From Candidatus Daviesbacteria bacterium (lineage in GTDB: Bacteria > Patescibacteriota > Microgenomatia > Daviesbacterales > UBA10151), in NCBI GenBank assembly GCA_030699125.1, contig JAUYKM010000009.1, positions 204,958 through 268,957 of the forward strand: a DNA stretch of 64,000 nt. Reading direction: 5' to 3'. A program made the position numbers and the translations under genes. Positions 3,436 through 64,000 of this stretch are shown here, piece after piece (the stretch's first letter is position 1; the number at the start of each line of letters is the position of its first letter). The notes under the pieces are model-generated. The model did no database searches. It saw only the letters and a program-made list of their open reading frames with translations, and was not told where the DNA came from.

Positions 3436-4296
3436 TTATTTCTTTTGTGCGAGCAAGACTATTGGCGTTTGGGCATTGAATAAATTTGCAACATGAATTG
3501 CTGGTTTTAAAAGTTTTAAAGTTTTTAAAATTGTGATAATTTTTTTTGCCGATCCTACGGTACTTAACTCAGGAAGTTTTAATTTTGAGACTTTTTCAGT
3601 AAATACCTCTTTACCCCAATCTAATACCAGTAATGGTAGGGGTCGAGTTATATTTTTTAGATCTATTTGATTCACTAGTTGTAATTCATCTAAGAGTTTG
3701 GGGTTTTTGCCCCAAAGCTTAAGGTATAATCTACCCAGGGATTTTGATAAGTAGGGGATCCAAATTATTCCATAATGGCTCTCCCAGAAAGATCCATAAT
3801 TTGGAACTACAGAATATAAATAGCCACCACTTTTTAAAACACGCGTTGATTCCTGAATAACTCTCTTCACGTTTTGAACATGTTCAAGAGTAAAAAATGA
3901 GACAACAATATCAAATGATTCGTCTTTGTAGGGAAGTTTTTCTCCGTCTGCTTGTTTGATTAAATTGGGGTTAAATCCGGATCTTTTAAGTAGCTCTCGG
4001 CCTATTCTTAATGTAGTTTGATAGTAGGGTTGATTAGCCGGTTCTATACCCTTCGCTCTAATGCCATTTTCCAGACAGATTACAAGAAAGAGGCCATAAC
4101 CGCAGCCAACCTCTAAAAGTTTTTTATTTTTTAATTTACCCAATGCGACAGTCAAATCGTCAAAATGTTCACGAGCACGCTGCCATGATAGAAGTGCTTC
4201 TGCAGTTTCTTGGGCAGGCCTTCCGGTTACGTGAGCTAAAGTTTGATCTAAATGTTCAGTTAGCTCATTTTTTAAATCATTTATTTCAATTCTCAT
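3436..4296 (-). CDS. Class I SAM-dependent methyltransferase
   Basis: 286 aa. LEVGCGYGLF is a motif I (GxGxG), with an acidic residue after beta-2. Confidence 0.7.
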   Translation of the reverse strand: MRIEINDLKNELTEHLDQTLAHVTGRPAQETAEALLSWQRAREHFDDLTVALGKLKNKKLLEVGCGYGLFLVICLENGIRAKGIEPANQPYYQTTLRIGRELLKRSGFNPNLIKQADGEKLPYKDESFDIVVSFFTLEHVQNVKRVIQESTRVLKSGGYLYSVVPNYGSFWESHYGIIWIPYLSKSLGRLYLKLWGKNPKLLDELQLVNQIDLKNITRPLPLLVLDWGKEVFTEKVSKLKLPELSTVGSAKKIITILKTLKLLKPAIHVANLFNAQTPIVLLAQKK

Positions 4297-4326: not shown

Positions 4327-5637
4327 CTAAACTTTTGAATTTTTGACAATTTTGAAATCAGGTAGAGGAATAATGAAGTTAGATTTCAAGCCCCTTTTCT
4401 TTAATTGTTGCATGATTGGAAGTGCATAATGCCAGGCAAGTAGTACTACATAATCCGGTTGATCATCAAATAATCTTTGATTATTAACAACTGGCATATG
4501 TTTTCCAGGTAAGTACATGTTTAGTTTTAAGGATGTTGGCTGCTCAGCTAAGTAAGGAAGTAATTCAGTGTCCACGCCGTAATAATTTAGGAGAGTAGAA
4601 CATCTTCCAGGACAAGAATTTCCCACAATTTTTTTACCTTTTTTTCTTGATTTCATTAAGAAATCCATAAATTTCAGACGGGCATTTCTAACTCGATCTG
4701 CAAATAGCTTGAATGTTTCCAATTTTCCTAATCCAAATTCTTTTTCTAATTTTAATAATTTAGCCACTGATGGATTAATCTTTTTTCCCTTACCCTTTTT
4801 AACGTATATTCGAATATTGCCTCCGTATCTACTTCCTCTTTCTACCTCCACTATTGTAAAATCATATTGATTAAATAGAGTAATAAGAGCTTTTAGAGAA
4901 TACGTTCTTAAGTGCTCATGATAGATTGTATCGAATTGCCCGCCGGCTATTACATCAAGAAGGTAATGAGTTTCGGAGATAAAGATTCCATCGTCCTTTA
5001 ATAAATTGTATGCACCCATTATGAACTCTCCCAGTGTTTGCATATGGGCAAAAGTATTAGTAGTAATAATAAGAGATGCTTTCCCGTATTTTTCCTGAAT
5101 TTTTTTAGCTGTTTTTATTCCAAAAAAGGCTTGAAAAGTGTTTATACCACTTTTATTGGCAATTTTGGCAATATTCGTTGGTTCAACTCCTAATGTTTTT
5201 ATACCCTCTTCTTTAAAGCCTTGGAGTAAGGTACCATCATTTGAACCGACATCAACAATTAAGTCATTTGAATTTAATTTAAATTTTTTTATAATGGATT
5301 TACTTATTTGTTTTTGGTAATCAACTAGCTCTTTAGTGATACCGCTACGGTAAGGATAATCAGGATAATAGATCTCTTTCCCAGCTACACAGTAATCAAT
5401 TTGAACTCCCGTACAATCTTCACACCAAACCATTCTAAGAGGATAGGTTATCTCGGGTTTATCTAATTGCTCATCTGTTAGCATAGCCACACAGGGAGAT
5501 TGGTGACCTAAATCTAAGATCAAATGTAATTTTTTTGAATTACATATCTGGCAGGAAGATATATGGCCAGTTTTAACAAAATGATGCTTTGGATAAGTTA
5601 ATTTCATTTGTTTTTGAGTATAACATATCAAATCCAA
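4327..5637 (-). CDS. NDP-hexose C-methyltransferase-like (TylCIII/NovU family) with N-terminal zinc-ribbon domain
   Basis: 436 aa. An N-terminal CQICNSKK...LDLGHQSPC zinc-ribbon/Methyltransf_13-like region is followed by a SAM-binding motif (VDVGSNDGTLL) and a C-terminal C-methyltransferase-type domain. Confidence 0.6.
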   Translation of the reverse strand: MDLICYTQKQMKLTYPKHHFVKTGHISSCQICNSKKLHLILDLGHQSPCVAMLTDEQLDKPEITYPLRMVWCEDCTGVQIDYCVAGKEIYYPDYPYRSGITKELVDYQKQISKSIIKKFKLNSNDLIVDVGSNDGTLLQGFKEEGIKTLGVEPTNIAKIANKSGINTFQAFFGIKTAKKIQEKYGKASLIITTNTFAHMQTLGEFIMGAYNLLKDDGIFISETHYLLDVIAGGQFDTIYHEHLRTYSLKALITLFNQYDFTIVEVERGSRYGGNIRIYVKKGKGKKINPSVAKLLKLEKEFGLGKLETFKLFADRVRNARLKFMDFLMKSRKKGKKIVGNSCPGRCSTLLNYYGVDTELLPYLAEQPTSLKLNMYLPGKHMPVVNNQRLFDDQPDYVVLLAWHYALPIMQQLKKRGLKSNFIIPLPDFKIVKNSKV

Positions 5638-7471: not shown

Positions 7472-8308
7472 TTAGCCTGGCTGTATTTCCCAAAAACTAT
7501 TGTAAATTGATTGTTTAGAAAGGAATATAAAATTTGATAAAAGATAATTTGGGAGCCTTTTATCGATACCATCCTCAACAAGTAGAACAACCCTTTTCCC
7601 TAATCGTAAAATTTTACTTGCTCCTTGTAATACTTCTGTTTCATGGCCTTCAACATCTAATTTAATGAATATCTCATCAAACTTTGAAAAATACCTTGAG
7701 AAACTATTTAATTTCTCTGCCTTAAGTTTGATTTTTTTGGATCCTGATTTAAAAGTAGTAAACATTTTCATCTGGTCGTTAATATAAAAATCTACAAAGC
7801 CATTTTTATTACTTAATACAGATTGAAATATTCTCACACTTGATAGTTTGTTGATTTGAATATTTCTTTTCAGGAGAGAAAAATTTTCCGGAAAAGGCTC
7901 AAATGCCATAAGTTCCAAATGATCATTACTTTTCCATTTCCTTCCAATGCTGACAGAGTATTTACCAAAACCTGCACCAATATCTACAAACATTACCTTT
8001 TTACGTTTCTTTAGTCTATTGCCTATGAGATTATTCAAATAAACTATATCTGTCCTTTCAAAGGATGGTGAAGCAATGGTTAAATCCGGCCAGATCTTCC
8101 TAATAAAAAAATCACCACACCTTGTTTTTAACAGAATTTTTTCGTTTTGATAGATTAATTTCAGGGAAGGAAAAATGTGTGCGGCAAAATACCCAATTTC
8201 ATTAAATAAAATAGTCAGGCGATAATTATAACATTCTAAGGGGGCGATAAGTTTGTAGAACAACAGATAAACAAAAAAAGTAAGTTTCTGTACGATATTA
8301 AATTTCAT
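7472..8308 (-). CDS. FkbM-family SAM-dependent methyltransferase
   Basis: 278 aa with VDIGAGFGKYS ... FEPFPENFSLLKRN ... LDVEGHE, the characteristic FkbM-domain signature. Confidence 0.7.
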   Translation of the reverse strand: MKFNIVQKLTFFVYLLFYKLIAPLECYNYRLTILFNEIGYFAAHIFPSLKLIYQNEKILLKTRCGDFFIRKIWPDLTIASPSFERTDIVYLNNLIGNRLKKRKKVMFVDIGAGFGKYSVSIGRKWKSNDHLELMAFEPFPENFSLLKRNIQINKLSSVRIFQSVLSNKNGFVDFYINDQMKMFTTFKSGSKKIKLKAEKLNSFSRYFSKFDEIFIKLDVEGHETEVLQGASKILRLGKRVVLLVEDGIDKRLPNYLLSNFIFLSKQSIYNSFWEIQPG

Positions 8309-19388: not shown

Positions 19389-20045
19389 ATGAAGTTTATC
19401 GATAAACTTAAAACCCTTACTCCATTTTCATATATGTGGTTTCTCAAAAGAAATATTGGAGAAGCCAAGACTATACTAGATTTAGGATGCGAAGATGGCA
19501 GGTTGCTTGAACTTTTATCCTTTGGGGAGAAGTGGCAAGTGACAGGTGTAGATATATATAAAGAGAATGTGGAAAAAGCATCTAGAAGAAATATTTTTGT
19601 TAAAGTGATTAAGGGAGATGTAGTAGAAGTTTCAAAAAAATTTGTAAAATTGAGAAAAAAATTCGATGTGGTTTTTTGTTCGCAAGTGATAGAACATATT
19701 GAGAGAAAAAAGGGAGAACAGTTATTTGATCTTGTTGATAAATTAGCAAGAAAAAGAATCGTGATTGGAACACCGAAAGGATTTATGAATCAACCGCATG
19801 TTTTTTTGGGAAATAATCCTCATATGCACCATAAATCTGGGTGGACTATAGAAGATTTTAAGAATCATGGGTATAAAGTTTATGGGATAGGTTTTTGGCC
19901 TATCTGGAAGGAAGAAGGATTAGCAAGAATAGATAATAAACTACTTTTCCTTACAATGACAATCTTAGGTTATATTTTTTCTCCAATAGTTTACTATTTC
20001 CCTACACTCGGAGCGGGAATTTTGGGTATTAAACAAAAGGTATGA
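19389..20045 (+). CDS. Class I SAM-dependent methyltransferase
   Basis: 218 aa. ILDLGCEDGRLLE is motif I. It is paralogous to the C-terminal half of the 20042 gene. Confidence 0.7.
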   Translation: MKFIDKLKTLTPFSYMWFLKRNIGEAKTILDLGCEDGRLLELLSFGEKWQVTGVDIYKENVEKASRRNIFVKVIKGDVVEVSKKFVKLRKKFDVVFCSQVIEHIERKKGEQLFDLVDKLARKRIVIGTPKGFMNQPHVFLGNNPHMHHKSGWTIEDFKNHGYKVYGIGFWPIWKEEGLARIDNKLLFLTMTILGYIFSPIVYYFPTLGAGILGIKQKV

Positions 20046-21646
20046 AAAAAGCTTTGGTATCAGTAGTTATAGTAACAAAGGATAGAAAAAATGATTTAAT
20101 TGAGTGTACTAATTCCTATATTAAATCAACATATAAGCCAATAGAAATTATAGTTATAGATAATGCCTCAAAGCCTTCTTTATTAACATGGCTACCAAAA
20201 AAATATCCAAAAGTTAAACTTATTACTTCTGATAAAAATCTAGGTGCAGCATCTGGGAGAAACTTAGGATTTGATCATTCGAAAGGTGAGTATATTCTTT
20301 TTACAGATGATGACGCTGTTTGTGATAAAGATATGATTACTCAATTAGTGAAAGTTTTCGAAGATAAAAATGAAGCAGGAATTGTTCAACCGTTAGTCTA
20401 CGATAAGCATCGAAAGAATATGCTGCAAGGTGCAGGTCATGATATTGATCTTACAACAGGAAGGATTAGAGCATCAGGTGTGAAAGAAGTTGATAGGGGA
20501 CAGTATGATGGTTTAAGGGAAGTGCCGATGTGTGGTTGTGTGTGGATGGTAAAAAGGGAGGTCTTTGAAAAGATTGGCAGCTATGATCCGGATTATTTTA
20601 TTCCATATGAAGATTGCGATTTTTCTGTAAGGGCAAGGAATGCAGGATTTAAGCTCTATTGTATATCTTTGGGTAAGACTTGGCATCGAGGCCCTAAGAA
20701 TACATTTGTTCATCCCTGGATAGAATGGCTTGGTATTACTTCCCCCGAAAGAGCATACAGAATTGCCAGAAATAAAATGATATTCATGAGAAAAAATTCA
20801 CCATTTCCTAACAATCTTATTTTTTTCTTTTTGTTTCTTCCAATATATACTTTAGCTCATAGTTTAATTATTCTATTGACGGGAAAGTTCGATATCTTTT
20901 TAAAGTATTGGTTAGGAGTTATATCCGGAGTTTGGTATGCTATAACTTTCCCTGTCAGAGATATTGTTAGATCTAACTATAGGAAGATTGATAAATTATC
21001 ACGTCCTATAAAAATGTTCCTAATTGCAACAACAGATCCTGTTAATTGGGTAATTGATACAAAAAGTGAATCTATTCTGGATTTGGGTTGTGGACCTGGT
21101 AAATTAATGGAATTTATAAAATTCAAAATGAAGGTAAGAAAAGCAGTCGGTGTTGATCTCTTTGCTCCTTATATTGAAGAGGGAAAATTAAGAAAAACTC
21201 ATGATCAATTTATATTGGAAGACGTAAGAAAAGTGAAATTTAATAATAAATCTTTTGATATTGTACTTGCCTCTCATGTACTTGAGCATTTAGGTAAAAA
21301 TGATGCTTGGAAACTTTTGAGTAATATGGAAAAGTGGGCAAAAAGACAAGTTATTGTGGCAACGCCAATTGGTGAACATTACCATCCTCCTGAGGATGGT
21401 AATCCACTACAGCTTCATCATAGCGCTTTCCAGCCTGAAGATTTTGAAAAAAGAGGTTATAAAATACTAAAATATGGCTGGAAATGGTTACTTGGAGATA
21501 AGGGATTAGTTCATAAAATAGATAATGATTTGATCAGAAAAATCATCTATACATTTAATATTTTGATTACCCCCATACTTTATTTATTTCAAGAAAGCTG
21601 TGACTATATTTTTGTAGCTATTAAAAGGGTAGATGAAAAGTTATAA
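20042..21646 (+). CDS. Bifunctional GT2 glycosyltransferase / SAM methyltransferase fusion
   Basis: 534 aa. The N-terminal half (VSVVIVTKDRKND ... FTDDDAVCDKD) is GT2. The C-terminal half (ILDLGCGPGKLME ... VLASHVLEHL) is a methyltransferase. Both halves are paralogous to the two upstream stand-alone genes. Confidence 0.75.
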   Translation: MKKALVSVVIVTKDRKNDLIECTNSYIKSTYKPIEIIVIDNASKPSLLTWLPKKYPKVKLITSDKNLGAASGRNLGFDHSKGEYILFTDDDAVCDKDMITQLVKVFEDKNEAGIVQPLVYDKHRKNMLQGAGHDIDLTTGRIRASGVKEVDRGQYDGLREVPMCGCVWMVKREVFEKIGSYDPDYFIPYEDCDFSVRARNAGFKLYCISLGKTWHRGPKNTFVHPWIEWLGITSPERAYRIARNKMIFMRKNSPFPNNLIFFFLFLPIYTLAHSLIILLTGKFDIFLKYWLGVISGVWYAITFPVRDIVRSNYRKIDKLSRPIKMFLIATTDPVNWVIDTKSESILDLGCGPGKLMEFIKFKMKVRKAVGVDLFAPYIEEGKLRKTHDQFILEDVRKVKFNNKSFDIVLASHVLEHLGKNDAWKLLSNMEKWAKRQVIVATPIGEHYHPPEDGNPLQLHHSAFQPEDFEKRGYKILKYGWKWLLGDKGLVHKIDNDLIRKIIYTFNILITPILYLFQESCDYIFVAIKRVDEKL

Positions 21647-58135: not shown

Positions 58136-58546
58136 ATGTTTTTGGGCAGCTATAAAACTTATTTCAGTGGCAAGAATAGATTAATATTACCGAAGAGGTT
58201 CAGGAAAGAATTAGGGAATGAAGATAAGTTTTATATACTTTTGGGGGAAAATGGGGAAATTTGGGGATTTGATACGGGAAATTGGTTTAAGCTGACAGAA
58301 AATGTTTTAGAATTCCCACTTTCCACAGAAGAAGGTAGAGTTAAAAGGTTAAGACTCTTTCCTAAAGCTGAAGAATGTTCGCTAGATTCTCAGGGAAGAT
58401 TTATCTTACCCCAGGAGTTTATGGAGAGGTTAAATTTTAGAAAAGAGGTATTGATAATTGGCGGCGGTGATCATTTTGAGGTCTGGGATTTAAATCTTTG
58501 GAAAAAGCAGCAAGAGAAATTGGAAAATGGGCATGGAAGGTCATAA
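58136..58546 (+). CDS. mraZ: Transcriptional regulator MraZ
   Basis: MFLGSYKTYFSGKNRLILPKRFRKELG... shows duplicated MraZ/SpoVT-AbrB-like halves. It sits at the head of the dcw cluster. Confidence 0.85.
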   Translation: MFLGSYKTYFSGKNRLILPKRFRKELGNEDKFYILLGENGEIWGFDTGNWFKLTENVLEFPLSTEEGRVKRLRLFPKAEECSLDSQGRFILPQEFMERLNFRKEVLIIGGGDHFEVWDLNLWKKQQEKLENGHGRS

Positions 58547-59471
58547 GACCCTGAGTGGGTCGAAGGGGTATCATAGAAGCGTTCTTTTAAAAGAAGTTTT
58601 GGGTGCACTTAATATCCGAGATGCCTGGTATCTAGATTGTACTTTAGGCGACGGAGGGCACACGATAGAAATTATAAAGCGGGGAGGGAAAGTTGTCGGA
58701 ATAGACGTAGACCCGCAGGCCCTTGGGCGAGTGCGAAAGAGGTTTGGAATAGAAGAAATAGATAGAAATAAGTGGAAACTAATTGTAGGGAATTTTAGGG
58801 ATTTGAAAAAATTAATACTAAAGCAGACGGATCTCAAAGATCAAAAATTTGCTGGTGCCAAGTCATACTTGGCTGGGGCAATTTTTGATCTGGGGGTTTC
58901 CAGTTTGCAGCTTGAAACCCCGAGTCGGGGTTTTTCTTTCTCTAAGATAGGACCTTTGGATATGAGAATGGACCCTACTTTAGAGGTAAGGGCTTTGGAT
59001 TTAATTAACGCTGGCGGAAGAAAGCAGTTATATGAATTATTTAAAAATTTGGGTGAAGAAAAATATTCTAAACGTCTGGCTGATCATATGGTCAGCGCCC
59101 GTCAGGTAGGGGTAAAAATTGAGACCACCAAGGACCTGGCGGATTTGGTGGAACAAGTAGTTAGAAAACATGGGAGGTTGCACCCTGCCACAAAAATTTT
59201 TCAGGCGCTAAGGATAGCTGTAAATGATGAGTTGAATGCATTAAAGGAAGGATTGGATCAGGTGATAAGTTTAATTGATAAAAATGGTCACATTATAGTA
59301 ATTAGTTTTCATTCACTGGAAGATAGGATTGTCAAAGAGACTTTTAGAGCTTGGTCAGCTCAAGGCTGGGGTCAAATTTTAACCAAAAAGCCGATTGTAC
59401 CCACTTTGGAGGAAATAAATATAAATCCTCGAGCCAGATCAGCCAAGATGAGGGTATTTGAAAGGAGTTAA
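58527..59471 (+). CDS. rsmH: 16S rRNA (cytosine1402-N4)-methyltransferase RsmH (MraW)
   Basis: HRSVLLKEVLGAL, DCTLGDGGHT and DLGVSSLQL are canonical RsmH motifs. It follows mraZ. Confidence 0.9.
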   Translation: MGMEGHKTLSGSKGYHRSVLLKEVLGALNIRDAWYLDCTLGDGGHTIEIIKRGGKVVGIDVDPQALGRVRKRFGIEEIDRNKWKLIVGNFRDLKKLILKQTDLKDQKFAGAKSYLAGAIFDLGVSSLQLETPSRGFSFSKIGPLDMRMDPTLEVRALDLINAGGRKQLYELFKNLGEEKYSKRLADHMVSARQVGVKIETTKDLADLVEQVVRKHGRLHPATKIFQALRIAVNDELNALKEGLDQVISLIDKNGHIIVISFHSLEDRIVKETFRAWSAQGWGQILTKKPIVPTLEEININPRARSAKMRVFERS

Positions 59472-59474
59472 GTA

Positions 59475-59771
59475 ATGACAATAATACGAAGTTTTGAAAC
59501 AGAAATAGAACCCAAAAAATTTTCCAAAAAATATATTATTCTCACATTAGCTGCCATTTTCGCTTTAGTGATCGTGGAAATTTGGGTAAATAACACTCTT
59601 CTTATCTACGGAGAAAAATTTGATAATTTATCAAATATTGAGAAAAACTTGAAATTGGAAAACCAAATTCTGGAAAATCAGATTGCCAGGGAAACCTCGC
59701 TGGAAAAATTATCCTCAAAATCAGCTGAGCTTGGTTTTACCCAGGCCCAAGATGTAAAATATATTCCTTGA
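59475..59771 (+). CDS. ftsL: Cell division protein FtsL-like (single TM + coiled coil)
   Basis: 98 aa with one TM (ILTLAAIFALVIVEIWV) and a heptad-rich tail. It lies between rsmH and ftsI. Confidence 0.6.
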   Translation: MTIIRSFETEIEPKKFSKKYIILTLAAIFALVIVEIWVNNTLLIYGEKFDNLSNIEKNLKLENQILENQIARETSLEKLSSKSAELGFTQAQDVKYIP

Positions 59772-61468
59772 TGCGTATTTATTGGATTAGGTTACTTTTT
59801 GTAGTTTTCCTTATTGCTATTATTGCCCGCTTGTTTTACTGGCAGATTGTTAAAGCAGAGGAGCTACAGGCACAAGCTGAGGAACAACATTTTACTGATA
59901 CTCGTGTGACTGCCCAAAGAGGGAACATATATTATCTTGATAATCATATTCTGGCTTCCTCAATTCCCTCATTTAACCTTTATGCTTTGCCAAAATTGTT
60001 AACTGATGATGAAAAAAGAGAAACAGCTTACAGAATGGCAAAAGTATTATCTGATGAAGAGAGTGATACAGAAGAAGAGGCCAAAAATATCTGGGATAAG
60101 CTTTTACAAGATCTATATTGGGTACAGCTTAAAAAAAATATTGATTTAGAGACTAAGAAAAAACTGGAGGAGCTCCAAATAGAGGCAATTGGATTTAACT
60201 CCACCAGTATAAGGTTTTACCCTGAAGGTTCATCCAGTGCTCATCTTTTAGGTTTCGTCGGTTCTGACGCAAAGGGAGGAGAGGTGGGTTATTTTGGAGT
60301 TGAGGGATACTATGATGGTGAGCTTAAGGGAATGGAGGGTATTTTAAGACATGAAAGAGATGCTCTTGGTTTACCAATTCTAACTGGAGACTTTTTATCT
60401 ACAGGAGCAAGAGACGGTAAGGATTTAGTACTTAATATTGATCGCTCTGTTCAGTTTATTGTGGAACAGTCTCTAAAAAAGGGGCTTGTCCGATACGGTG
60501 CAAAGACAGCCAGTGCTATTGTTATGGATCCCGAAACCGGTGTAATTCTGGCCCTGTCCTCCTATCCTAATTATGATCCTGCCAAATACACTCAATTTCC
60601 GCCGGATTATTATAAAAATCCGGTGGTGGCAGATCATTATGAGCCTGGATCAACTTTTAAGGTTTTGGTGTTGGCAGCGGCCATTAACGAGGAGGTGGTA
60701 ACACCTGAGACTAAATGTGATATTTGTCAGGGCCCCATATCTTTGGGGGGATTTCTGATAAGAACATGGAACAATAAATACCTTGATAACCCTACTATGA
60801 CCGATGTGATTATTCATTCAGACAATACGGGAATGGTATATGTTGGCAGGAAATTGGGTTTGGATAAATTTTATCAATACTTAAAGGATTTTGGCTTTGG
60901 TAGTTCTACCAATATTGATTTACAGGATGAAGCTTTTGTAGATCTTAGGCCCAAGAGTGAATGGAGGGAAATTGATCTGGCTACTTCCTCATTTGGACAG
61001 GGAATTGCAGTTACCCCTATCCAGATGATTACAGCTATTTCCGCAATTGCCAATGGGGGGTATTTAATGGAACCACAAATAGTGAAAACTATAAAAGATA
61101 ATAATCAAGTTGTGGAAATCAAGCCAAAAATTGTCAGGCAAATTTTAAAGGAATCAACAGCCAAAATTATCACTGAAATGATGGTAAGAGCAGTTGATGA
61201 AGGGGAGTCTAAATGGGCAAAGCCCAAGGGATTTAAAATTGCCGGAAAAACAGGTACTGCCCAAATTCCTATAGCTGGACACTATGATCCTGAAAAAACC
61301 ATTGCCTCTTTTGTGGGGTTTGCACCAGCTAATGATCCCACATTTGTGATGCTAGTGCGCTATGATCAGCCATCCTCCTCCATTTATGGTTCGGAAACTG
61401 CCGCTCCCACTTTTTTTGAAATTGCCAAAGAACTTTTTACCTACTTTAAAATAGCACCCTCCGAGTGA
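59768..61468 (+). CDS. ftsI: Peptidoglycan D,D-transpeptidase FtsI / class B penicillin-binding protein
   Basis: 566 aa with an N-terminal TM and the motifs STFK (SxxK), HSDN (SxN) and KTGT (KTG). Confidence 0.9.
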   Translation: MMRIYWIRLLFVVFLIAIIARLFYWQIVKAEELQAQAEEQHFTDTRVTAQRGNIYYLDNHILASSIPSFNLYALPKLLTDDEKRETAYRMAKVLSDEESDTEEEAKNIWDKLLQDLYWVQLKKNIDLETKKKLEELQIEAIGFNSTSIRFYPEGSSSAHLLGFVGSDAKGGEVGYFGVEGYYDGELKGMEGILRHERDALGLPILTGDFLSTGARDGKDLVLNIDRSVQFIVEQSLKKGLVRYGAKTASAIVMDPETGVILALSSYPNYDPAKYTQFPPDYYKNPVVADHYEPGSTFKVLVLAAAINEEVVTPETKCDICQGPISLGGFLIRTWNNKYLDNPTMTDVIIHSDNTGMVYVGRKLGLDKFYQYLKDFGFGSSTNIDLQDEAFVDLRPKSEWREIDLATSSFGQGIAVTPIQMITAISAIANGGYLMEPQIVKTIKDNNQVVEIKPKIVRQILKESTAKIITEMMVRAVDEGESKWAKPKGFKIAGKTGTAQIPIAGHYDPEKTIASFVGFAPANDPTFVMLVRYDQPSSSIYGSETAAPTFFEIAKELFTYFKIAPSE

Positions 61469-61480
61469 TACCATTTATTT

Positions 61481-62221
61481 ATGGAACTTAAGGGTAAAGT
61501 ATTTATTTTAACCGGAGCAAAAAGAGTTGGTCAGGATGTGGCTAAAGCTTTGGGTGAGAGAGGTGCCAATTTGGCAATTTCCTATAATTCTTCGATAGAA
61601 GATGCTCAAGAATTAAAGAAGGAATGTGAATCTGTTGGTTCCCGCGCCGAAATTTTTAAAGCAGATCTTTCTAAAAGTGAAGATATCGGTCGTCTTGTGG
61701 ATGAGACTTTGAAAAAGTTTGGCGCAGTTGATGGACTTATTCATATGGCTGCCAATTATCCCAAAACTCCTATTGGTGGGATTACATTGGAGGATTTTGA
61801 TAAAACAATGCATATAATTGCTGCTTCTACTTTACTTTTGGGGCAAAAAATAGGCAAAGAAATGCAAGAAAACGAAGGAGATGTTAAAGGAAAAATAATT
61901 TTTTTCTCTGATTGGTCAGTTTTAAGATCCCCTTATCCGAATTATATTGTTTACAATGGGGCCAAATCAGCGGTGGAATCTTTTACCAAAAGTTTAGCAA
62001 GGCAATTTGCTCCATCCATTACTGTTAATGCTATAGCTCCTGGGCCAATCCTTAGGCCCCCTGATTTATCAGATGATGACAATGAGGAAGTGATGAAAAA
62101 AACTCCTCTTCAAAAATGGGGAGGGGGAGACGAGATTGAAAAAGCTGTTTTGTACTTGCTGGATGCAGACTTTGTAACAGGAGTAGTTTTACCTGTTGAT
62201 GGTGGCAGATCAATTGCTTAA
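61481..62221 (+). CDS. Short-chain dehydrogenase/reductase (classical SDR)
   Basis: 246 aa. LTGAKRVGQDVAKAL is a TGxxxxxG-like motif, YNGAK is the YxxxK, and PG follows. Confidence 0.7.
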   Translation: MELKGKVFILTGAKRVGQDVAKALGERGANLAISYNSSIEDAQELKKECESVGSRAEIFKADLSKSEDIGRLVDETLKKFGAVDGLIHMAANYPKTPIGGITLEDFDKTMHIIAASTLLLGQKIGKEMQENEGDVKGKIIFFSDWSVLRSPYPNYIVYNGAKSAVESFTKSLARQFAPSITVNAIAPGPILRPPDLSDDDNEEVMKKTPLQKWGGGDEIEKAVLYLLDADFVTGVVLPVDGGRSIA

Positions 62222-62722
62222 AGAGATCCTCTTTATTTTTCTTTCAAGATACTTTTGTGCTTGTACATTATTAATTGCGTCAAAGGTAAACATGGTTCCT
62301 AAAGCTGCAGCAAGTGGAGGATAAAGTAGTCCTAAACTTAATAAGACTGAATCAATAGCTGCCCACTTTTTACTGAAAACCCCTCTCTCTGTAGGATAAA
62401 GAGAATAAAGTCGGTTACCCTCATAGGTATTATGTTTTATACCAGCTTCATTAGCTCTTATGGCAGTTCTTGATCCGTGAACAGTACTTATTCTATCTGC
62501 CAAACGGCCAATAATAAAAACAGACGCTCCTAAAACATACCCGGGTAAAAAATTTTCAGTAGGAGTTCCAAAAATTTGATCCCTATATAATAATACCTGA
62601 GTAGTAAGTCCTTCTAAGAATAATGGGATTTGAGGAAAATTTCCTTCGATGTAGCTGTAATTAGTTATAAATTTATCAAAAGAACTTTTGTTCTCTATTT
62701 CCATAGTTGTTGAGTATAACAT
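62210..62722 (-). CDS. Hypothetical protein
   Basis: 170-aa reverse-strand ORF with a hydrophobic segment and no recognised motif. It is convergent with the SDR gene. Confidence 0.35.
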   Translation of the reverse strand: MLYSTTMEIENKSSFDKFITNYSYIEGNFPQIPLFLEGLTTQVLLYRDQIFGTPTENFLPGYVLGASVFIIGRLADRISTVHGSRTAIRANEAGIKHNTYEGNRLYSLYPTERGVFSKKWAAIDSVLLSLGLLYPPLAAALGTMFTFDAINNVQAQKYLERKIKRISLSN

Positions 62723-62757
62723 TTGGATAATCCAGTTTTCTACTTCTTTGTAATCGA

Positions 62758-62808
62758 CAAACTACCTACGGCCGTGATAATCTTGAAATATGTATAAAAA
62801 GAAGAGTT
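62758..62808. repeat. Direct repeat copy 1 (about 50 bp, contains the ACGGCCGT palindrome and the start of the PaaX-like gene)
   Basis: AAACTACCTACGGCCGTGATAATCTTGAAATATGTATAAAAAGAAGAGTT is ~80% identical to copy 2 at 63296-63346. Confidence 0.6.
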
Positions 62809-63290
62809 TATCTAACCTCATTTTGTTAGCTTTGGAAAAATCAGTAGATGGTTACGTAAGATTAGAAAATTTTTTATATAACCCTGGATATTATGCTTAT
62901 CATAATGGATGGGATTACCCATTAAAAAAGTCCTCATTTGGACTAGCTCTTAAAAGATTGAGGGAGAATGGTTTGATAGACTTTGTTGGAGATAACGAAT
63001 TAATTATTAGACTTACTGATAAGGGAAGGGGGAAAACGCTAATGCTGAGCTTACTAGAAAATAATGATAAATGGGATGGTAAATGGAGGATAATTATCTT
63101 TGATGTTCCAGAAAAAAGAAGAATTGCAAGGGATTTATTAAGACAAAAATTAAAAGGGTGGGGATTTACTCCATGGCAGCAAAGTGTTTGGGTTACAAAA
63201 AAGAATTGCACAAAACAATTGAGGGATTTTATTAAGAATATTGGAATAAAGGATTGGGTAAAGGTTATTGAATCAGACAATGTTGATTAA
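62790..63290 (+). CDS. PaaX-like C-terminal-domain protein (putative small transcriptional regulator)
   Basis: 166 aa. WDGKWRIIIFDVPEKRRIARDLLRQKLKGWGFTPWQQSVWV matches the PaaX-family C-terminal signature (W-DG-W, [VI]-x-[YF]-D-[IV]-P-E, SVWV). Confidence 0.5.
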   Translation: MYKKKSLSNLILLALEKSVDGYVRLENFLYNPGYYAYHNGWDYPLKKSSFGLALKRLRENGLIDFVGDNELIIRLTDKGRGKTLMLSLLENNDKWDGKWRIIIFDVPEKRRIARDLLRQKLKGWGFTPWQQSVWVTKKNCTKQLRDFIKNIGIKDWVKVIESDNVD

Positions 63291-63295
63291 TGCTT

Positions 63296-63346
63296 CAAAC
63301 TATATACGGCCGTTAATAGTTTGAAATTTGTATTATAAGGAGAGTT
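63296..63346. repeat. Direct repeat copy 2 (upstream of murE)
   Basis: AAACTATATACGGCCGTTAATAGTTTGAAATTTGTATTATAAGGAGAGTT. Its ATG-equivalent is TTG, followed by a degenerate (L)YYKES versus MYKKKS. Confidence 0.6.
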
Positions 63347-63379
63347 CTGATGATATAATTAACGGCGGCAAGTTACTAA

Positions 63380-64000
63380 ATGAATTACTTGAAACAATTA
63401 TTGCGGGGATTTTTTCCTCAAAATTTTATCAATAAATTTTACCATCTTCCCATGGCCTTTTTGGCCAATTTATTTTATGGGTTTCCCACCAGAAAACTGA
63501 TTGTAATTGGGGTGACTGGTACTGACGGAAAAACCACCACCACCAATATGATTTATAGGATTCTAAAAGCCGCAGGCAAAAAAGTATCCATGGTATCAAC
63601 AGTTAATGCATATGTGGGGGGTAAAATTTATGATACTGGTTTTCATGTTACTTCTCCTGATCCATTCATGGTACAAAAATTTGCCGGAGCAGCAGTTAAT
63701 CACGGTGATAAATATCTTATTTTGGAAGTGACCTCTCACAGCTTGGATCAAGTAAGATTTTGGGGAGTAAAATTTAAAATCGGAGTGATTACCAATATTA
63801 CTCATGAACATCTAGATTATCATGAAACTTTTGAAAATTACAAAAATACAAAATTATCTTTACTAAAAAACGGCAGTTTTGCAATTATTAATGATAATTT
63901 AAAAAAAGATGTAGCAGGAAAAACTAAAGCTGATATTATTACCTTTGGTCTCTCTTCCGGGGACTTTAATCAAAAGGAGATTAACCTTAAGCTAAAGATT
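63380..64000 (+). CDS. murE: UDP-N-acetylmuramoyl-tripeptide synthetase MurE (N-terminal part; continues beyond the window)
   Basis: VIGVTGTDGKTTTTNMIY is the Mur ligase P-loop. ITNITHEHLDYH is a Mur ligase motif. It sits in the dcw cluster after ftsI. Confidence 0.8.
   Translation, partial: MNYLKQLLRGFFPQNFINKFYHLPMAFLANLFYGFPTRKLIVIGVTGTDGKTTTTNMIYRILKAAGKKVSMVSTVNAYVGGKIYDTGFHVTSPDPFMVQKFAGAAVNHGDKYLILEVTSHSLDQVRFWGVKFKIGVITNITHEHLDYHETFENYKNTKLSLLKNGSFAIINDNLKKDVAGKTKADIITFGLSSGDFNQKEINLKLKI

Follow-up and report, generated by a model that had tools for sequence, protein, structure and literature searches.

Why should a small regulator gene stand between two near copies of one sequence, the first running over its start codon and the second lying just past its stop? 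This question is raised by a 64,000-nt stretch of DNA from a Candidatus Daviesbacteria bacterium (assembly GCA_030699125.1, contig JAUYKM010000009.1, positions 204,958 to 268,957 of the forward strand; hereafter the window, in whose own numbering positions are given), where a gene for a PaaX-like protein sits between ftsI and murE in the division and cell wall (dcw) cluster. An initial annotation of the window had offered two readings of the repeats, i.e., the footprint of a cassette insertion or duplication, or a shared operator through which the PaaX-like protein controls both itself and murE. The analysis presented here leads, with moderate confidence, to a reading close to the second: the twin boxes would be two operators private to one local regulator that represses its own gene, the downstream box serving as an auxiliary site (Table 1).

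The repeats, announced as ~50-bp direct copies of ~80% identity, are borne out by a repeat search, which aligns 62758-62808 with 63296-63346 over 51 nt without gaps, 40 of them identical (78%), at a spacing of 538. As described, the first copy contains the ATG at 62790 together with the six first codons, and the second begins 6 nt after the TAA (63288-63290) and carries a TTG (63328-63330) in register in place of the ATG. The annotation had named an identity below 60%, or additional unrelated copies, as grounds for giving up the repeat; the identity is 78%, and the 64 kb hold no other copy. The motif TACGGCCGT occurs twice in the 64 kb, where 0.03 occurrences are expected, and the core ACGGCCGT is restricted to the two repeat copies. 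The same two sites are the only ones returned within the window by the generalised core ACGRYCGT and by a 30-nt box pattern with up to 3 mismatches (shuffled sequences, 0.00). Moreover, two independent Logan assemblies from other sequencing runs (L095 and L096) are identical to the window base for base over the whole region, and the repeat is therefore no assembly artefact.

Homologues of the regulator are numerous. In a scan restricted to one genome per species, 117 relatives came up, and the 80 best of them were retained as loci (L-numbers below); together with the window and a second copy on L054 they make up 82 genes. The loci come from Daviesbacteria, other Microgenomates, and unclassified Patescibacteria, and the encoded proteins of 160-190 aa combine a winged helix-turn-helix (wHTH) with a Cas2-like domain in Daviesbacteria and Microgenomates. 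Within this family the repeat resolves into two layers, a ~34-bp palindromic box that is found family-wide and a further ~20 nt that are found only in the lineage of the window: identity between the box upstream of a gene (U) and the box downstream of the same gene (D) exceeds the background of ~0.3 solely between -14 and +19 relative to the core (34 bp), and the flanks stay at that background. The box consensus has ACGRYCGT at its centre and CAAA/TTTG arms. Its symmetry is pronounced, with 8.7-8.8 of 14 arm pairs complementary compared to 3.6 in random 34-mers, and complementarity exceeds the expectation from column composition nearly everywhere (e.g., 0.91 vs 0.51 at -11/+16 and ~0.58 vs 0.29 at -3/+8). 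In the window, the D box is a good palindrome (TTCAAACTATATACGG/CCGTTAATAGTTTGAA, 16-nt arms, 14/16 or 88% complementary) and the U box a poorer one. As a family trait this difference was rejected (8.81 vs 8.73 of 14 for D and U, Wilcoxon p = 0.98), and across the family D is more symmetric than U in the outermost three positions only.

The position of the U box points to a role in transcription of the regulator itself. The gene has a sigma70-type promoter, TCGACA-16-GATAAT, whose spacer has ACGGCCGT at its 3' end. The 14-nt gap between core and ATG contains no Shine-Dalgarno sequence, which, together with a -10 hexamer ending 8 nt before the ATG, suggests a leaderless mRNA. That this ATG is the start follows from the N-terminus MY(K/R)KKS, which is conserved among homologues. 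The arrangement of a symmetric site overlapping the gene's own -35 and -10 elements recurs in 81 of the 82 family genes, all of which have the core CG[AG][TC]CG within 90 nt upstream, and the common layout reads TTGACA, spacer with ACGRYCGT, TAnnnT, start codon. The -35 element is a perfect TTGACA (6/6) in 39/81 genes; the start codon follows the core by 13-17 nt in 65/81 and, likewise in 65/81, follows a -10-like hexamer by 5-10 nt with no Shine-Dalgarno sequence. Among the orthologues of the ftsI-regulator-murE locus, the box is kept and the sequence further upstream diverges; indeed, the boxes, the -10 element and the murE promoter alone are conserved in the intergenic DNA.

The D box is bound just as closely to the other end of the gene. 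Its core lies within 60 nt after the stop codon in 63 family genes and 10-16 nt before it, inside the last codons, in 7 more, and the distance from stop to core is nearly fixed, mostly 11-14 nt. A D box identical to its own U box in 20 or more of 34 positions is present in at least 64 of 81 genes (search from -40 to +70), and several of the remaining genes have recognisable D boxes with a degenerate core. It makes a weaker promoter than U, with a 6/6 -35 element in 4/64 compared to 31/64 loci and TAnnnT in 31 compared to 45. The next gene is co-directional in 55/81 loci and convergent in 26/81; the presence of D in front of convergent genes and its fixed distance from the stop codon imply that it belongs to the regulator and not to the next gene. 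It is conserved in the orthologous ftsI-regulator-murE loci, whose regulators have 89% (L083), 77% (L081 and L084), 75% (L004), and 72% (L007) protein identity. Canonical terminators, i.e., a hairpin with a T-tract, follow within 120 nt of the stop codon in 6/82 family genes. Two further observations concern the DNA beyond D: tRNA genes appear, by eye, directly downstream in L063, L066, L068, and L076, and ~250 nt with strong hairpins (e.g., CCCCGCTTTCTTAAAGCGGGG) separate D from murE in L004 (L004:4560-4780), which are present neither in the window nor in the other orthologues.

U and D boxes of the same gene resemble each other more than they resemble those of other genes. When the 6-bp CGRYCG core is excluded and the remaining 28 arm positions are compared, U matches its own D in 20.1/28 positions, the D of different genes in 11.7/28, and those of other paralogues of the same genome in 11.0/28 (maximum 19). 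In 54 loci, no more than two of the 64 D boxes match better than the own one; the remaining close matches are presumably orthologues. The family is multi-copy, with at least 4-6 members per genome: 6 loci come from CAZYPW01 (one metagenome-assembled genome, MAG), 5 from JACOYE01, and 4 from CP066688 (complete, 820 kb). Clustering the regulators by single linkage at 58% identity lumped nearly all of them together, and orthologous groups were set by common neighbours. Stable neighbourhoods comprise a penicillin-binding protein (PBP) gene upstream with MurE downstream (window, L004, L007, L081). Other types have an M1 aminopeptidase (9 loci), DprA (6), or elongation factor P (EF-P, 3) on the downstream side, the M1 loci often having DnaB upstream (5), or a divergent GH1 glycosidase upstream (8), and there are further ones. 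As each type of paralogue keeps its own neighbourhood, the paralogues are old and positionally stable. As to their distribution within genomes, three of the four paralogues recovered from CP066688.1 (L068, L011, L030; L007) lie within ~50 kb (~536, 567, and 583 kb), two paralogues lie 3 kb apart on L054, and L058 contains an extra degenerate fragment (7595-7879, 35% identity).

What kind of protein is encoded between the boxes? It matches PF20803 (PaaX_M) over residues 93-164 with 82.9 bits (cut-off 24), and all 120 listed homologues carry this domain. An AlphaFold2 model of the monomer, built from 30 homologues (predicted local distance difference test, 80.7), has a winged helix at residues 7-75, with the wHTH elements H-b-H-H-wing, then a long helix (77-93) and, over residues 98-163, a ferredoxin-like domain of the order beta-alpha-beta-beta-alpha-beta. 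In a Foldseek search against the PDB, E. coli PaaX (8a39) comes first, followed by Rv0674 (3kfw) and 3l09; for the N-terminal half the matches are MarR and PadR proteins, for the C-terminal half they are Cas2 proteins. The N-terminus gives weak matches to MarR profiles (E ~0.1-0.5), and the 166-aa protein has no match to the Pfam model of the PaaX N-terminus or to PaaX_C, ending at residue 166 right after the Cas2-like domain. The alignment to 8a39 covers 167 columns of a 305-residue chain, the PaaX equivalog TIGR02277 scores 30.7 bits against a cut-off of 264.55, and the PaaX operator TGATTC-N27-GAATCA has no match in the window. The label "PaaX-like" thus holds at the level of domain (PaaX_M) and fold (Foldseek): the protein is a truncated relative of PaaX at that level and not a PaaX orthologue. 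An identical protein is on record from a Candidatus Daviesbacteria MAG.

A Cas2 or CRISPR identity was rejected. The Cas2 models stay below threshold (TIGR01573, 18.6 vs 24.5; PF09827, 17.4 vs 23.8), those of PADLOC reach E values of 1e-4 to 3e-3 only, and the window contains no array-like repeats: no CRISPR array was found, and Tandem Repeats Finder gave a single two-copy repeat with a 23-nt period over the 64 kb. One family member, P0082, is named "CRISPR-associated endonuclease Cas2" by NCBI. As the family falls below all Cas2 cut-offs and the window lacks a CRISPR-like array, this name is doubtful and probably a misannotation that could propagate. The sole tandem repeat of the window (21496-21541, 2 x 23-nt unit, 78% matches) lies near the 3' end of the open reading frame (ORF) 20042-21646.

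The encoded protein is the natural candidate for binding the boxes because nothing except the gene enclosed by them changes along with the site. Symmetric sites that vary between paralogues around a common ACG/CGT core would fit recognition by a symmetric dimer, which could contact the invariant ACG/CGT and, in addition, the outer arms ~10-13 bp from the centre. Bound at U, the protein would occlude RNA polymerase and shut off its own leaderless transcript, i.e., act by negative autoregulation as PaaX does. D might then serve as an auxiliary operator of the same specificity, which could either form a ~540-bp loop with U or act as a roadblock that insulates the module against read-through into murE, whether from the regulator or from the dcw genes upstream. 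Insulation is considered because terminators are scarce and the module often lies inside operons. Among the conceivable roles of D, looping and/or roadblock would rank first and, in the window, an influence on the murE promoter second. The extra ~20 nt over the start codons would be a secondary lineage patch outside the functional site. The operator proposed by the initial annotation is supported as far as the 34-bp box is concerned, which is symmetric, conserved in position, co-varying per paralogue (80 loci), and located with its U copy in a promoter spacer; control of murE is not established.

Several observations weigh against an autorepressed regulator with a private operator pair. We infer binding of the boxes by the encoded protein from linkage and co-variation alone. 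In mutual information between protein columns and box positions (with average product correction), the wHTH is not enriched, in a comparison that is confounded by phylogeny. The C-terminal ligand domain of PaaX is absent from the 166-aa regulator. The spacing between U and D varies from 507 to 570 bp with no helical phasing, which, at this loop size, argues neither for nor against looping and does not help to tell the possible roles of D apart. Further box sites are lacking in the ±4-kb flanks of the relatives, with one exception in L071; nor does the window hold any, or the 2.9 kb past its end. Finally, the direct orientation gives the better fit between D and its U in 50/64 loci and the inverted one in 5. 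This excess of direct copies implies that the likeness owes something to shared descent or gene conversion and that selection for binding is not the sole force.

Gene conversion is also suggested by the outer layer of the repeat. The extension 62789-62808 / 63327-63346 is identical in 16/21 positions, the highest value of the 64 loci (family mean 6.4 ± 2.7 of 21; P ~1.6e-5, or 0.001 when corrected for 64 loci), and is absent in L083, L081, L084, L004, and L007, where unrelated sequence is found. As judged from these alignments, the similarity over the start codons is probably a lineage-specific patch that was copied from U to D by gene conversion.

Another trace of exchange may be present in L071. 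A third box (L071:3059-3124) precedes a 221-aa gene there and lies 855 nt upstream of the U box (3914-3979); the D box is at 4500-4547. Over 58 nt the third box is 98% identical to the U region, including 18 nt of the left flank of U, its right end matches the right flank of D, and the orthologous L072 has no third box. It looks like the product expected of recombination between U and D, or like an unoccupied site, and is the sole hint of cassette-like behaviour found.

Of the explanations that compete with or extend this one, the best preserved is that D is the operator of the murE promoter and that the regulator controls both genes. This could be combined with autorepression as an added, lineage-specific function. 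The geometry in the window is suggestive: D ends 24 nt before TGATATAAT, and its centre lies 44.5 nt upstream of the hexamer, at about -55 from the likely transcription start site. Moreover, the gene downstream is co-directional in the majority of loci given above, and the regulator holds its position between ftsI and murE in the orthologues. However, a site centred at about -55 leaves the core promoter free, and in the orthologues D may lie anywhere from ~20 to ~260 nt before the murE promoter (~20-25 nt in the window, L083, and L081, ~80 in L084, ~140 in L007, and ~260 in L004). D is equally present before convergent genes (26 loci) and is fixed relative to the stop codon of the regulator. 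Shared control of murE, as put forward by the initial annotation, is therefore not established, and we regard it as rather unlikely.

A broader proposal takes the U-gene-D units for autonomous "punctuation" modules, i.e., a dedicated and expanded mini-PaaX family of Daviesbacteria whose members would each mark a single place on the chromosome with a private site pair. The complexes of protein and DNA would serve as programmable insulators or terminators of transcription in core operons (dcw, dnaB, dprA, efp) of genomes poor in canonical terminators. In its radical version, the units would be selfish cassettes with a Cas2-like domain that acts on the boxes, and the chimeric box of L071 and the conversion tract from U to D would be traces of cassette activity. 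We consider this proposal a long shot.

Mobility in a plainer sense, in which the gene and one box were inserted or duplicated and the repeats are a scar or recombination sites, was the other reading of the initial annotation. It draws on the direct repeats around a single gene, the many copies of the family in very small genomes, the direct orientation of D relative to U, the longer tract of U-D identity in the lineage of the window, the chimeric box of L071, and the Cas2-like (nuclease-type) fold of the C-terminal domain. A duplicative or gene-conversion relationship between U and D is indeed supported by the direct copies and the extension. A recent insertion is not: each paralogue has its own conserved neighbourhood over many genomes, and the box pair is found with every paralogue. 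As to the suggested comparison with related genomes that lack the gene, it is present in all orthologous ftsI-murE loci examined, at the same site down to 72% identity. Furthermore, the boxes are private to each paralogue with no shared element end, no relatives were found in IMG/VR viral contigs or GenBank phage genomes, and no recombinase was seen adjoining the regulator in the window. A footprint of this kind is very improbable.

Still less probable is an RNA element, in which the D palindrome would act as a hairpin that terminates or stabilises the mRNA at its 3' end, any resemblance to U being incidental. The D box of the window does fold at -12.3 kcal/mol (z = -1.98) and lies at the 3' end of a gene in a family that otherwise rarely has canonical terminators. 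However, there is no U-tract, the D profile is A-rich past +19, and a terminator scan is negative at 63290-63380. The average box has no more than 8.8 complementary arm pairs out of 14, and the mismatches are not biased towards G-U (50 GT-type, 34 AC-type, 248 other). In addition, the box lies inside the coding end in several subfamilies, Rfam gives no match in the window, and a hairpin need not match the untranscribed U box arm for arm. Chance, or a generic consensus of promoter and ribosome-binding site, has next to no probability and was rejected: the U box is partly promoter (-35, -10) and the genome AT-rich, but the GC-rich core occurs nowhere else in the 64 kb, the identity is 78% over 51 nt where shuffles give 0.00 matches, and the two-box layout with co-varying arms recurs in at least 64 related loci.

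How does the favoured design, an autorepressed regulator with a private pair of operators, compare with known systems? PaaX keeps polymerase off its own promoter by steric hindrance, recognises inverted half-sites set far apart (TGATTC-N27-GAATCA), and responds to phenylacetyl-CoA through its C-terminal domain (PMC9493321). The phenylacetate repressors of E. coli and Pseudomonas (8a39, 3l09; Rv0674, 3kfw) have a wHTH followed by a Cas2-like dimerisation domain, as does the regulator of the window. In contrast to PaaX, the latter is 166 aa long, without the C-terminal helical phenylacetyl-CoA-binding domain, and its putative site, a palindrome of 34 bp, has ACGRYCGT in the middle. Unlike PaaX, it is also multi-copy, with private sites, a second site past the stop codon, and no paa genes nearby, its neighbours being ftsI, a short-chain dehydrogenase/reductase (SDR) gene, orf170, and murE.

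Repressors that act by looping include lambda CI, whose gene lies between OR and OL, LacI with O1, O2, and O3, and GalR with OE and OI. Like these systems, the regulator has two sites, of predicted equal specificity and separated by hundreds of bp, of which one overlaps a promoter, and with lambda it shares the position of the gene between the operator sets. In contrast to all three, the second site is tied to the stop codon in every paralogue, and the spacing is unphased. Roadblock repressors, such as CcpA, CodY, and PurR, have sites within or after transcription units. Like these, the regulator has a predicted protein site in the path of elongating polymerase, with no canonical terminator past the gene; unlike in these, the putative site follows the regulator's own gene. 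Integron cassettes with their attC sites, and other single-gene cassettes between repeats, are likewise single ORFs with direct, imperfectly palindromic repeats and many copies per genome. However, integron cassettes are usually promoterless, and here the upstream repeat is a promoter, the repeats are alike for each gene and differ between genes, and all units encode one protein family at syntenic positions with no integrase. MraZ, the known dcw regulator, is an autoregulated small DNA-binding protein encoded in the cluster, as is predicted for the protein discussed here, whose fold is unrelated, whose putative sites are palindromic, and whose gene lies between ftsI and murE. The sites of MraZ are direct repeats in front of mraZ, where the cluster begins.

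Taken together, the two-box layout may be regarded as a variant on known autoregulatory designs, and no earlier description of the family or the layout was found in the searchable literature. Nothing relevant was found there that joins PaaX with Cas2-like, or leaderless with Patescibacteria, and PaaX was absent from the top-listed matches on PaaX, Patescibacteria, and the Candidate Phyla Radiation (CPR). A scan of Joint Genome Institute (JGI) metagenome contigs with the window box gave 10 matches, all in unrelated DNA (GC 0.36-0.61) and none beside a homologue; the sole match of low GC lies inside an rsmI-like ORF. These are chance matches, which tell nothing about a regulon or about empty sites.

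The locus matters since the genomes of CPR bacteria (Patescibacteria) are tiny and very little of their transcriptional regulation has been characterised, and the paralogues adjoin core genes (PBPs, MurE, DnaB, DprA, EF-P, M1 peptidase). Dozens of matched pairs of protein and site amount to a natural experiment, which could yield a recognition code for PaaX-type wHTH proteins, and promoter models for uncultured CPR bacteria could be built on these clear promoters with probable leaderless starts. For the obligatory second site, next to the stop codon, the question is one of looping, roadblock or insulation; if D is only an auxiliary operator, the design is neat but ordinary. In public annotation, members of the family are mis-named "Cas2" or "hypothetical".

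Table 1. Coordinates of the regulator locus and of neighbouring dcw cluster genes in the window.
Feature	Position	Strand	Remarks
-35 hexamer TCGACA, regulator promoter	62754..62759	+	overlaps U box left arm; promoter scan TCGACA-16-GATAAT, 10/12
U box, ~34-bp imperfect palindrome CGACAAACTACCT-ACGGCCGT-GATAATCTTGAAA	62755..62788	.	putative operator in promoter spacer
U box palindromic core ACGGCCGT	62768..62775	.	pattern searches
-10 hexamer GATAAT	62776..62781	+	directly after core; ends 8 nt before ATG
Regulator gene, 166-aa wHTH + Cas2-like (PaaX_M) protein	62790..63290	+	Pfam PF20803
D box, palindrome copy CTTCAAACTATAT-ACGGCCGT-TAATAGTTTGAAA	63293..63326	.	starts 3 nt after stop; putative second operator
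D box palindromic core ACGGCCGT	63306..63313	.	pattern searches
Repeat extension TTTGTATTATAAGGAGAGTT, lineage-specific	63327..63346	+	in register with 62789-62808 (ATG and first codons)
Extended -10 TGATATAAT of murE-like gene promoter	63351..63359	+	TGnTATAAT kept in L083, L081, L084, L004
murE-like Mur ligase gene, 5' part	63380..64000	+	runs off window; Pfam Mur_ligase_M 3.9e-36; full gene in L095
mraZ	58136-58546		dcw cluster
rsmH	58527-59471		dcw cluster
ftsI	59768-61468		dcw cluster
SDR gene	61481-62221	+	between ftsI and regulator
orf170, 170-aa ORF	62210-62722	-	no Pfam/NCBIfam/PADLOC match

The wider neighbourhood adds some minor observations. In L081, L004, and L007, ftsI is followed directly by the regulator, with neither the SDR gene nor orf170 between them; judged by this gene order, the two look like an insertion into the dcw cluster in the lineage of the window. 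Neither tRNA genes nor Rfam families gave a match in the window. A promoter-like site, TAGAAA-18-TATACT, runs from 62742 to 62713 on the minus strand (feature 62702-62742), downstream of the annotated ATG of orf170 (62722), and would be consistent with leaderless initiation at Met7 (ATG, 62704-62702), a mode that may be common in this organism. The murE start codon of the orthologues lies 8 nt after the -10 hexamer, a distance that suggests a leaderless murE mRNA there; in the window the distance is 20 nt (63351-63382; L081:3213-3232; L083:725-743). The public gene call for murE in L095 starts 72 nt further downstream, and the N-terminal MNYLK... of murE is conserved in L081 and L084.

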